This document shows positions 25,677 to 28,853 of a stretch of DNA of 50,077 nucleotides, in pieces. Numbering within the stretch: position 1 is the first letter of the stretch; each line of letters opens with the position of its first letter. The position numbers were made by a program, and so were the translations under genes. The notes below the pieces were generated by a model that was given only the letters and a program-made list of their open reading frames with translations, did no database searches and had not been told where the DNA came from. This DNA comes from Actinomycetales bacterium (GTDB taxonomy: Bacteria > Actinomycetota > Actinomycetes > Nanopelagicales > Nanopelagicaceae). The stretch is taken from positions 1 through 50,077 of the forward strand of contig QYQH01000004.1 of the NCBI GenBank assembly GCA_007280395.1. Reading direction: 5' to 3'.

Positions 25677-28379
25677 TTATACGCGCTTCTTCTCGCGTAA
25701 CTCGTAGGTCTGAATGATGTCGCCAACTTGAATGTCTTTGAATGAACCAAGTCCGATACCGCACTCGTAGCCATCCTTAACTTCAGTTGCATCATCCTTG
25801 AAGCGACGCAATGAATCAACTACTAGACCTTCGCCAACTAGAACACTATTTCTAAGTGTTCTCGCCTTAGCGTTACGTCGAATAGTTCCATCTTGAACCA
25901 AGCAGCCAGAAATATTTCCGAACTTGCTTGATTTGAAGATATCGCGAACTTCAGCGTTACCAAGAACAACTTCTTCAAACTCTGGCTTTAGCAAGCCCTT
26001 GAGTGAAGCTTCAATCTCTTCAATTGCATTGTAGATAACGGTATAGAAACGAATTTCTACGCCTTCAACTTCAGCAAAGGTTGCAGTTTGTGGTTCTGGC
26101 TTAACGTTAAAGCCGATGATTACAGCAGTCGAAGCAGATGCAAGAGTTACATCGCCCTTTGTGATTGCACCAACACCGCGGTGGATAACGCGAAGATCAA
26201 CCTCACTTCCAACATCGAGTTGTAGCAAGGCATCTTCCAGCGCTTCAACCGAACCAGAAACGTCACCCTTAAGAATGAGGTTAAGTGTGCTGATCTTGGA
26301 TTGCTCCATGAAATCTTCAAGTGAAACTTTCTTACGTGTCTTAGCAAGCAGCGCATTTCGCATTGCGAGTTGACGCTTTTCGGCAATCTGGCGAGCAGTT
26401 CTGTCATCTTCAGCGACTATGAATGAATCACCAGCACCAGGAACAGATGTGAAACCAAGTACTTGAACTGGGCGAGATGGACCAGCTTCAGTAACGGCAT
26501 CTCCGTTCTCATCTAACATCGCACGAACACGACCAAATGCTCCACCGGCAACGATTGCATCTCCGACGTGCAGCGTTCCGCGTTGAACAAGAACTGTGGC
26601 AACTGGGCCACGGCCCTTATCTAGGTTCGCTTCGATCGCAACACCACGAGCAACATCGTCGGCAATTGCACGAAGATCGATTGCGGCATCTGCGGTAAGA
26701 AGAATTGCATCGATGAGAGCATCAATACCTTCACCTGATTTCGCAGATACGTTTATGAACATTGTTGTTCCGCCGTACTCTTCTGCGATCAAGTTGTATT
26801 CAGTTAATTGCTGACGAATCTTGTCTGGGTTTGCACCCTCTTTATCAACCTTGTTTACCGCTACAACAATTGGCACATCGGCCGCTTGCGCATGGTTTAA
26901 GGCTTCAATTGTTTGTGGCATTACGCCATCATCCGCAGCGACTACTAGTACTGCGATATCAGTTACCTTCGCGCCACGAGCACGCATTGCGGTGAATGCT
27001 TCGTGACCCGGAGTATCGATAAATGTAATCGCGCGATTTTGACCTTCATGATCATGGTGAATTTGATAAGCACCAATGTGCTGGGTAATTCCACCTGCTT
27101 CGCCGCGACCGACTTCGGTCTTGCGAACTGCATCCAACAAACTTGTTTTACCGTGATCAACGTGGCCCATAACCGTAACGATTGGCGAGCGCACAACAAG
27201 ATCTGCCTCATCGATATCGGCAAGCTCTTGATCAAGGTCAATATCGAATTGTTCAAGAAGTTCGCGATCTTCATCTTCTGGGCTTACAACTTGAATTTTA
27301 TAACCAAGTTCTGCCCCAAGAAGTGTGAAGGTATCTTCATCAACAGATTGTGTAGCAGTAACCATTTCACCTAAGTGAAATAGCGCAGAGACTAACGCGG
27401 CTGGATCGCCGCCAATTTTCTCTGCAAAATCCATAAGGGTTGCGCCGCGACGTAGGCGAATTGTTGACTTGCCATCGCCGTGTGGAATGACTGCGCCACC
27501 AAGTGATGGTGCCGCCATATTGTCGAACTCTTCACGTAACGCTTTCTTACTCTTATGCGCCTTGCGAGATTTTCCACCTTGCTTTCCAAATGCACCAGCA
27601 GTTCCGCCACGTTGATGACGGCCACCGCCTTTACCGCCTGGACCACCTGGACCACCAAATGTTGTTGGTGCGCCACCAGCGTTTGCGTTCGGTGTGCGAT
27701 ATGGAGAATTTGAATTTGGTGCGCTAGTTGTTGAACCGCCGGGACCACCCTGACCACCCTGACCACTTGGACGGCCACCACTTGTTGGTGCTCCAGTTGT
27801 TGGACGATTTTGTTGCGGTCTTGCAGCGAAACCTGGACGAACAGATCCTGGACGTGCACCTGACATTGGTGGACGTTCACCTGGACGCAATGGTCGTTGT
27901 GCTGGTGGGCGTGGCATGGCATTTGCACCAGAACCACCACTTGAACCAAATGGATTATTTCCAGCGCGAGGAGGACGTGGCATTGAAGGTGCAGCAGGTC
28001 TAACCGCTGAAGTTGGAGTTACTGGTGCGACAGGTGCAACAGGTTTTTCTGGAGCAACCGGAATTTCGCTCTGGGCTTTTGAAAGTTGTTCGCGGGTTGC
28101 TTCTGGAAGGGCGGCAAGTGCCGCTTCAATCTCTTCTGCAGTTGGGACGGCTGCTTTCTTCGCAGCAACCTTCTTAGCTGCGGCTTTCTTAACTGGTTTT
28201 GGTGCAGCATCTGCGGGCTTGAGATCTGGGAACTTATCCATCAACTTGCGCACAACGGGTGCCTCAACAGTTGATGATGCAGATCGAACGAACTCGCCGA
28301 CTTCTTGTAACTTAGCGAGGAGCTCTTTGCTCTCTAAACCTAAATCTTTTGCTAATTCGTAAACGCGGACCTTTGCCAC
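25677..28379 (-). CDS. infB: Translation initiation factor IF-2
   Basis: [28 protein letters not shown]; GTG start. Confidence 0.99.
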
Positions 28380-28418
28380 AGTTGCCTTCCTGTCTTGGCC
28401 CCACGTCTTAATTGGAGC

Positions 28419-28439
28419 CTAAATTAATGCCTTAATCAT
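28419..28439 (-). CDS. infB-leader mini-ORF 3 (MIKALI*)
   Basis: ATG ATT AAG GCA TTA ATT TAG; its start overlaps the mini-ORF 2 stop as ATGA. Confidence 0.5.
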   Translation of the reverse strand: MIKALI

Positions 28440-28456
28440 GAGCGCGAGGTGCTCAT
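28436..28456 (-). CDS. infB-leader mini-ORF 2 (MSTSRS*)
   Basis: ATG AGC ACC TCG CGC TCA TGA, starting 2 nt after the mini-ORF 1 stop. Confidence 0.5.
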   Translation of the reverse strand: MSTSRS

Positions 28457-28458
28457 GG

Positions 28459-28497
28459 TTACTTAGTTTCCCAATTTGGGTTTGACTTGCTTGACAT
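28459..28497 (-). CDS. infB-leader mini-ORF 1 (MSSKSNPNWETK*)
   Basis: Strong SD AAGGAG (28506-28511) 8 nt before ATG; 12 codons then TAA. Confidence 0.6.
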   Translation of the reverse strand: MSSKSNPNWETK

Positions 28498-28517
28498 AGC
28501 TTTCGCTCCTTATATTT

Positions 28518-28766
28518 TTACAACTTGTTAGTTAAAAATTTCTCCAGCGGATCTGTAGAAAGATTCTCATCTGTTCTAAAGGCCCGTTGAAATGATCTGC
28601 GCTCCTTTGCCACATCGAAACAACTTCGATGTAACCAAGCACCGCGACCAAATTTTCGGTGATCTTCATCAGGCAGAACCTGATTTCCGATCCGAACTAC
28701 GCGAAGTAATTCCCTGAAGTTCTCGCGCTTGCGACAAGCTATGCAGCTCCGAATCGGAATCGGCAT
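28518..28766 (-). CDS. ylxR: YlxR/RnpM-family (DUF448) RNA-binding protein
   Basis: PIRSCIACR, LLRVV, GRGAWLH; nusA-ylxR-infB synteny. Confidence 0.92.
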   Translation of the reverse strand: MPIPIRSCIACRKRENFRELLRVVRIGNQVLPDEDHRKFGRGAWLHRSCFDVAKERRSFQRAFRTDENLSTDPLEKFLTNKL

Positions 28767-28853
28767 CTCTTATCCCTCACATTTGAAACTAGCAGGGGCC
28801 AACCTTACTCGCGAAAATCAGATGTTCCCAATCAGCGAGGAACCGCCCTGCGA

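Follow-up and report, generated by a model that had tools for sequence, protein, structure and literature searches.

The feedback loop of IF3 is textbook material, and no translational feedback on IF2 was found described. The spacer in front of infB, the gene for IF2, raises the question of whether such a loop might exist in a group of Actinomycetota. In the window (the whole stretch of 50,077 nucleotides analysed here), this spacer contains a strong Shine-Dalgarno (SD) sequence, a chain of three mini-ORFs and two hairpins, all on the minus strand and all upstream of the GTG start of infB. A preliminary description had read these elements as a relay in which ribosomes pass through successive stop-restart steps whose efficiency depends on IF2 or fMet-tRNA, and its coordinates for the SD, the three mini-ORFs, the hairpins and the infB start all match the minus strand. 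The points at issue are whether the chain is more than a chance arrangement, whether it is likely to be translated, and how it could act on infB.

Layout of the ylxR-infB spacer

The gene order is nusA-ylxR-infB, and a YlxR family protein is present at the equivalent position in relatives. Named matches closest to the N-terminus of the window IF2 include records from Candidatus Nanopelagicaceae and Planktophila, which makes this freshwater family the likely source of the window. The features are listed below in window coordinates, with duplex energies calculated against an assumed anti-SD motif.

28518..28766, minus strand: ylxR-like ORF, 82 aa, with a GRGAW motif
28506..28511, minus strand: SD of mini-ORF1, AAGGAG, putative entry to the relay; duplex energy −7.4 kcal/mol
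28459..28497, minus strand: mini-ORF1, MSSKSNPNWETK and a stop codon, read from the sequence
28436..28456, minus strand: mini-ORF2, MSTSRS and a stop codon, with a weak SD (−4.2); its stop overlaps the mini-ORF3 start as ATGA
28419..28439, minus strand: mini-ORF3, MIKALI and a stop codon, with no real SD (−2.3)
28437..28457, minus strand: hairpin pairing AUG2 with AUG3 (CATGAGC/GCTCATG), a genus-specific accessory
28397..28419, minus strand: hairpin P1 (GGCTCCA/TGGGGCC)
28413..28419, minus strand: P1 5′ arm (anti-anti-RBS), predicted to lie under a ribosome terminating at stop 3
28397..28408, minus strand: P1 3′ arm, the putative anti-RBS arm, with two alternative partners
28385..28391, minus strand: infB SD, AGGAAGG, −8.8 kcal/mol, outside P1
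28361..28379, minus strand: infB GTG start (at 28379) and codons 2-7
28361..28369, minus strand: predicted target of the anti-RBS arm within infB
25677..28379, minus strand: infB, encoding IF2 (900 aa, two IF2_N matches over the cut-off), the candidate regulated gene

The ylxR-like ORF stops 21 nt 5′ of mini-ORF1. At the first junction of the chain, mini-ORF1 and mini-ORF2 are separated by a 2-nt gap, and an in-frame TAA-CCA-TGA means that the usual overlap is still present there. At the other end of the chain, the last base of the mini-ORF3 stop is the first base of P1.

P1 is followed by the purine-rich AAGACAGGA, with no U-tract, and no terminator-like site was found on the minus strand at P1. 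An intrinsic terminator or attenuator, which would require a GC hairpin followed by a U-tract on the coding strand, was rejected for this position. Farther upstream, in the nusA-ylxR spacer directly 3′ of nusA (28843-28824, minus strand), a short hairpin with a U-rich tail has a terminator-like score, and it may set read-through into ylxR-infB.

Position 28447, in the loop of the AUG2/AUG3 hairpin, is T on the minus strand of the window and G in four RNA-library runs and most relatives in the genus; mini-ORF2 accordingly reads MSTSRS in the window and MSTARS in the variant. The RNA runs cover small shares of the stretch, and RNA-library contigs of close relatives span the region from ylxR through the leader to the infB start (X1, 28339-28655; X2, 28339-28776). 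These contigs are uninformative on transcription, ends and strand, and hence were excluded as evidence.

Conservation and reading frames of the mini-ORF chain

Taken alone, the window is only mildly unusual. A loose chain of at least three ORFs appears in 38 of 2000 dinucleotide shuffles (150 nt), and a comparable upstream chain is located at 9 of the 842 ORFs of at least 200 aa in the window's genome, infB included. Relatives were gathered by the IF2 N-terminus (219 loci), and their spacers were taken by alignment-based extraction. After the exclusion of five loci that were too short or had no start, three from unpublished genomes and 13 with identical spacers, 198 Actinomycetia spacers remained, and those with group labels span 42 groups. 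A chain was counted as strict when every start overlaps the preceding stop as ATGA or GTGA. By this definition, all 198 spacers have chains of at least two ORFs, compared with 18.8% of 3960 shuffles, and 168 have chains of at least three, compared with 2.1% of the shuffles; when the window-type 2-nt gap is permitted, the latter count is 184. In a second draw, taken from one order and one family via YlxR (60 loci, minus eight already known and two without a usable infB start), 49 of 50 loci have a chain of at least three ORFs; the genomes are related, and locus counts in both draws therefore overstate independence.

A chance origin of the chain was dropped because of this conservation. The suggestion in the preliminary description that similar start-stop chains precede infB in other actinomycetes is borne out by these counts, as is the chain in the comparison with shuffled controls that it proposed. 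Beyond Actinomycetia, the chain was found in none of the 20 usable loci (30 fetched) from other classes of the phylum, in which ylxR often extends right up to infB. As judged from these comparisons, the chain is a real, class-wide cis-regulatory element of Actinomycetia. In several of the classes that lack it, infB is apparently TTG-started (L223, L224, L228, L231, L234, L240 and L249), which is possibly another route for tuning IF2 translation.

The junctions are of few types (ATGA 395, GTGA 31 and the 2-nt gap 19, of 445), and of 414 spacings between neighbouring (A/G)TGA motifs, which range from 8 to 38 nt and are mostly 11, 14 or 17, 377 are 2 mod 3. It could be argued that these repeated AUGAG(C/U) words are protein sites, for NusA, YlxR or IF2 itself, and that the ORFs are incidental. 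Codon 2 of ORF2 is Ser (AGC or AGU) in 136 of 191 loci, which is more than the overlap requires and would suit such sites. Protein sites would leave unexplained, however, why the spacing keeps frame over such different distances, why AUGA and GUGA are interchangeable, and why the last ORF is always closed beside the hairpin by a stop of any type (TAA 77, TAG 74 and TGA 33, n=184), and this explanation is very improbable. The chain appears to behave like translated sequence, unlike a repeated binding site.

ORF1 is four codons long in 115 of 184 relatives, and ORF2 and ORF3 are five or six codons long in 169 and 153 of the 184, respectively. Median SD pairing energies across 191 loci are −7.2 kcal/mol for ORF1, −2.8 for ORF2, −1.9 for ORF3 and −9.6 for infB. 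With SDs this weak at ORF2 and ORF3, translation of both would depend on restart. The relay architecture is thus directly legible in the aligned spacers, and the relay reading of the preliminary description is upheld in that respect by the class-wide architecture, the preserved frame and the lack of strong SDs at ORF2 and ORF3; the signal that it proposed is taken up below.

The mini-ORF peptides drift (MSTR, MKLK, MGTR, METK, VKHQR), and neither a conserved stalling peptide nor a stretch of sensing codons was found in them, as both peptides and codons vary. A leader-peptide attenuator of the classical kind, responding to Ser, Thr or Arg, or a set of functional micropeptides, might be envisaged from the frequency of Ser at codon 2 and of Arg CGA before UGA, and from the geometry of stop and hairpin, which resembles that of attenuators. 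Such a device would be expected to leave other traces: there are no single-codon runs, the peptides differ widely, TCA takes the place of CGA in the window's lineage, and three frame-shifted ORFs would be superfluous. The chance that this is the function of the chain is slight.

The hairpin that pairs AUG2 with AUG3 is present in the window, as first described, but it was given too much weight. Both AUGs lie within it at 18 of 19 loci from the window's genus, at 7 of 30 other low-GC loci and at 20 of 140 high-GC loci, and it was rejected as a core part because it is confined to the window's genus.

Published data on the chain are sparse. In M. tuberculosis, the equivalent of ORF1 (MSTP and a stop codon, at 3147962) is catalogued as putatively leaderless, with a mapped 5′ end, and an isoform of ylxR ends in an ATGA overlap with it (PMC9094748). 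The available retapamulin (Ribo-RET) tables of that paper contain no initiation peak within the chain; the region is apparently masked as leaderless (according to its methods, the first 50 nt of leaderless ORFs are masked), and the start of infB itself is likewise undetected in these tables. The leaderless M. tuberculosis start site is absent from the available TSS table of PMC4633059, which has one TSS at −278 instead. No rows for the presumed M. smegmatis locus tags were found in the supplements of PMC4633059, and infB or IF2 has no match in the supplements of PMC7247131.

Hairpin P1 and its predicted alternative partner at the infB start

A common register for P1 is fitted by 150 of 196 loci, 131 of which have at least five contiguous pairs. 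One pair covaries (C-G 63, U-A 55, U-G 13). The adjacency of last stop and hairpin noted in the window is general, as 129 of the 131 loci have a 5′ arm that begins −1 to +5 nt from where the last stop ends, and the position of the leader ORF lets a terminating ribosome cover this arm, as in an attenuator. P1 leaves the infB SD free. The 5′ arm resembles infB codons 3-5 (at least five of seven bases identical in 100 of 131 loci), and the 3′ arm is therefore able to pair with either. The preliminary description had rightly placed a hairpin at the last stop, where it is conserved, but had missed the complementarity of its 3′ arm to the infB start, and hence the sign of the switch.

Across loci, the sequence of the 3′ arm shows complementarity to infB codons 3-7, to the SD, or to both. 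Two states are predicted for the window: an ON fold, in which this arm is held by the 5′ arm, and an OFF fold, in which it binds infB codons 4-7 and the start region. In the OFF fold, 28408-28400 pairs with 28369-28361, and the start codon is enclosed by further predicted pairs. Lineages with a different N-terminus follow the same scheme using other sequences. Those of Nocardia, Rhodococcus, Amycolatopsis and Micromonospora use the 3′ arm against the SD and a second segment against the codons, and some second-draw families carry an anti-SD within the hairpin.

The effect of occluding the 5′ arm was modelled by forcing everything up to 9 nt past the stop to be single-stranded, with the opening cost of the RBS taken over −14 to +15. 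In the masked fold, an RBS-closing helix (via the coding region, the SD or both) forms in 190 of 196 loci and in all 50 loci of the second set. Folding predicts that masking raises the opening cost by a median of 4.6 kcal/mol, with a rise of more than 1 kcal/mol in 165 of 196 loci and a fall of more than 1 kcal/mol in 5. When the P1 pairs and loop are scrambled as a control, the masking shift drops from 5.7 to 1.8 in the first set and from 7.5 to 1.8 in the second, and the real masked cost lies above that of the scrambled control in 187 of 196 and 48 of 50 loci (235/246). The window itself is barely above its control, with a masked-minus-free shift of 3.6 compared with 2.9. Two mutually exclusive helices, one of which closes the infB RBS and start, are predicted from these folds, and covariation in both helices supports this switch.

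The second of these helices involves protein-coding sequence, and its synonymous positions appear to be constrained. The duplex between arm and codons is stronger than the mean of synonymous recodings in 171 of 196 loci, with p≤0.1 in 55 of 147 high-GC and 45 of 49 low-GC loci. The third base of an Arg codon is paired with its partner in the arm in 115 of 150 loci (C-G 70, G-C 31), compared with 77.9 (maximum 96) after shuffling, and in 89 of 105 compared with 74.8 when only high-GC loci are considered. In an unfitted alignment of 28 rows, the same positions are C-G in 9, G-C in 9, U-A in 3, G-U in 1 and unpaired in 6, and six slid registers of this alignment are all lower in paired cells and in covariation score. 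The covariation is imperfect in a fixed register (G-G 8/150, U-C 15/150), and some of these cases resolve by a bulge. On a FastTree tree of 141 of 167 loci, which is built from short proteins and is rough enough to serve only for counting repeated changes, there are four single-branch changes from C-G to G-C and about eight uncompensated single-tip changes.

Codon usage points in the same direction. Of 97 high-GC loci, 85 use CGG for the covarying Arg codon, compared with 379 of the 1931 Arg codons (20%) of the gene body. All 50 low-GC loci use GTC for Val4, compared with 18% in the gene body. The synonymous sites of codons 3-7 are also invariant within the window's genus (18/18), which is weak evidence alone because codons 11, 25, 26 and 28 are equally invariant.

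These results bear on the possibility that coupling is positive, with the chain delivering ribosomes to infB or melting a hairpin for it, and IF2 thereby tied to the translation of ylxR or nusA. Ribosome delivery is a proposed function of short upstream ORFs (PMC12548453), a hairpin 12-19 nt 5′ of the start could itself impede 30S loading, and in 86 of 163 loci, the ylxR frame closes with a stop that overlaps a start as NTGA, a count that is discounted because stops in several frames catch any read-through frame. However, the last stop lies a median of 44 nt from the infB start (5-95%: 36-63) and does not overlap it, infB has a strong SD of its own outside P1, masking of the 5′ arm closes the RBS far more often than it opens it, and positive coupling provides no role for the covariation between the arm and the infB codons. 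It is distinctly unlikely.

Some loci depart from the common form. In family f85 (L310-L312), YlxR was not found in three of three genomes, and the leader is a variant built of two short ORFs, to which a third, GTG-started ORF is sometimes added; in L310, this third ORF crosses the SD and ends immediately 5′ of the infB start. Pairing between arm and infB is predicted in two of these three loci, with a helix of 12-13 bp in L310 and L312. In L174 and L177, AUG2 is lost (AAGA or CAGA instead) while the hairpin and the U-A form of the arm:codon pair are kept, a possible degenerate or reduced form.

A proposed re-initiation switch and its known relatives

The reading favoured here, with a probability of about 0.58, is that the leader acts as a translational attenuator, counting re-initiation events and repressing infB under efficient initiation, such that IF2 would limit its own synthesis. 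Ribosomes would have three routes into ORF1, namely its SD, arrival from ylxR and a leaderless 5′ end; with some exceptions, leaderless translation in vitro is stimulated by IF1 and IF2 (PMC9031893). Two successive terminate-restart steps would follow, each of which, we infer, requires IF2 and fMet-tRNA, and with two restarts, arrival at stop 3 would depend steeply on the capacity for initiation. In an E. coli reporter, re-initiation was raised by IF2 and lowered by IF3, and formylation mattered, with the IF2 effect resting partly on mutant tRNAs (PMC2268962). Because IF2 enhances re-initiation in that report, lower IF2 activity would be expected to cause a steep fall in arrivals at stop 3.

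A ribosome at a start protects approximately 15 nt, and at stop codons its footprint ends approximately 12 nt past the stop (PMC9094748). Given these distances and an ORF3 of five or six codons, a ribosome waiting at AUG3 would stay short of the hairpin, and only one that has initiated and elongated to stop 3 would reach it and cover the 5′ arm. This ribosome would melt P1, and the freed 3′ arm would clamp the infB start and RBS. With IF2 plentiful, infB would be OFF; with IF2 scarce or inhibited, P1 would remain intact and infB would be ON, resulting in negative feedback on IF2 synthesis. The predicted sign of the switch, in which a ribosome at the last stop turns infB off, is the new element here. 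Even without a ribosome, OFF is more stable than the fully open ON fold (by a median of 6.4 kcal/mol; −17.6 compared with −11.1 in the window), and because OFF is the lower-energy fold, the ON state is probably captured kinetically, with P1 transcribed first and a 30S subunit then binding the SD.

The same OFF switch could instead read the IF3:IF2 ratio, recycling, fMet-tRNA supply, ppGpp or temperature, in which case it would not be strict autoregulation by IF2 level. All of the structural evidence is equally compatible with this, and sequence alone does not reveal which of IF2, IF3, recycling or ppGpp would be sensed. The effects of excess IF3 and of formylation on the E. coli reporter (PMC2268962) would fit such inputs, and published models of restart by 30S or 70S ribosomes disagree, with a positive role for IF3 in the 70S-scanning model (PMC12548453). 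On the other hand, the leader accompanies infB also in a family in which YlxR was not found, which makes the infB product the simplest ligand, and both infC (PMC5472188) and eIF5 (PMC8892498) provide precedents for factors that sense their own step. A switch set by some variable other than IF2 is possible, if unlikely. The odds are about even on a more specific form of IF2 autoregulation, in which the relay is an ultrasensitive IF2/fMet-tRNA meter that shuts off infB via a strand exchange encoded in synonymous codons, as a counterpart of GCN4/eIF5-type control. GCN4 and ATF4 are subject to re-initiation control, and GCN4 senses the delivery of initiator tRNA by re-initiation.

In ermC- and cat-type leaders, the position of the ribosome on a leader ORF selects between exclusive helices, one of which hides the RBS. 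The same choice of helices by ribosome position is predicted for the infB leader, but here the stalling peptide or codon run is missing, the predicted input is successful restarts rather than stalling, arrival represses, and the anti-RBS target is N-terminal coding sequence in most lineages. Ribosome-mediated translational attenuation is mentioned in PMC2965389 and PMC12548453. Termination-reinitiation at ATGA/TGATG overlaps (PMC6728339, PMC12548453, PMC2268962) shares with the leader the NUGA junction and the SD-poor downstream starts, and stops and starts overlap or nearly touch at the leader junctions. The known cases in the available texts couple real genes and act positively, whereas the downstream ORF in the leader is not the protein gene itself: ORFs of four to six codons are linked two or three times in succession, and the series stops approximately 44 nt short of infB, at a switch predicted to be negative.

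Autoregulation of infC (PMC5472188) similarly involves a factor gene that reports its own step in negative feedback, as proposed for infB. The sensor of infC is a single odd start codon, whereas infB has a strong SD and a start that is GTG in the window and nearly all Actinomycetia loci inspected, and its sensor would be the upstream relay and RNA switch. The inhibitory uORFs of eIF5 (PMC8892498), in which more upstream initiation gives less main protein, follow the logic proposed here. The eIF5 and GCN4 systems belong to eukaryotic scanning, however, and the infB leader to a bacterial polycistronic mRNA, with repression predicted to occur via RNA refolding. The rimP-leader attenuator is found in the same rimP-nusA-infB operon (PMC2965389). 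As described there, it consists of a U-tract terminator ahead of rimP and contains no ORFs, whereas the infB element is internal to the operon and directly before infB; assignment of the infB leader as a rimP-leader was rejected because of this different position and make-up. Overall, the leader is predicted to work like a translational attenuator fed by termination-reinitiation, with a logic like that of infC and the eIF5 uORFs. Full membership in each known class fails, as the leader has no stalling peptide, no odd start codon, no gene overlap and no U-tract.

No Rfam 15 match at the gathering score was obtained for the window (best E 0.85) or for nine related loci. No description of the element was found in the open-access literature searched, and the available text of a 2025 review of translational coupling does not mention infB. 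If the proposal is correct, this would be the first translational autoregulation of bacterial IF2 found in the literature covered, and the first case found of chained mini-ORFs serving as a counter. An element of approximately 100 nt would then set the level of an essential factor throughout the class, from freshwater streamlined lineages to Nocardia, Rhodococcus, Amycolatopsis and Micromonospora, and would place synonymous codons near the beginning of the essential gene infB under a non-coding constraint. It gives sharp, signed predictions, and would be a natural reporter for the factors and the ribosome form (30S or 70S) behind re-initiation.

The chain also varies in length. In L250, L260, L308, L292, L105 and L043, it has four or five ORFs, some of which are apparently tandem duplications of a unit, and in L083 and L258, the middle or last ORF is much longer. 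It may be that the number of restarts tunes sensitivity.
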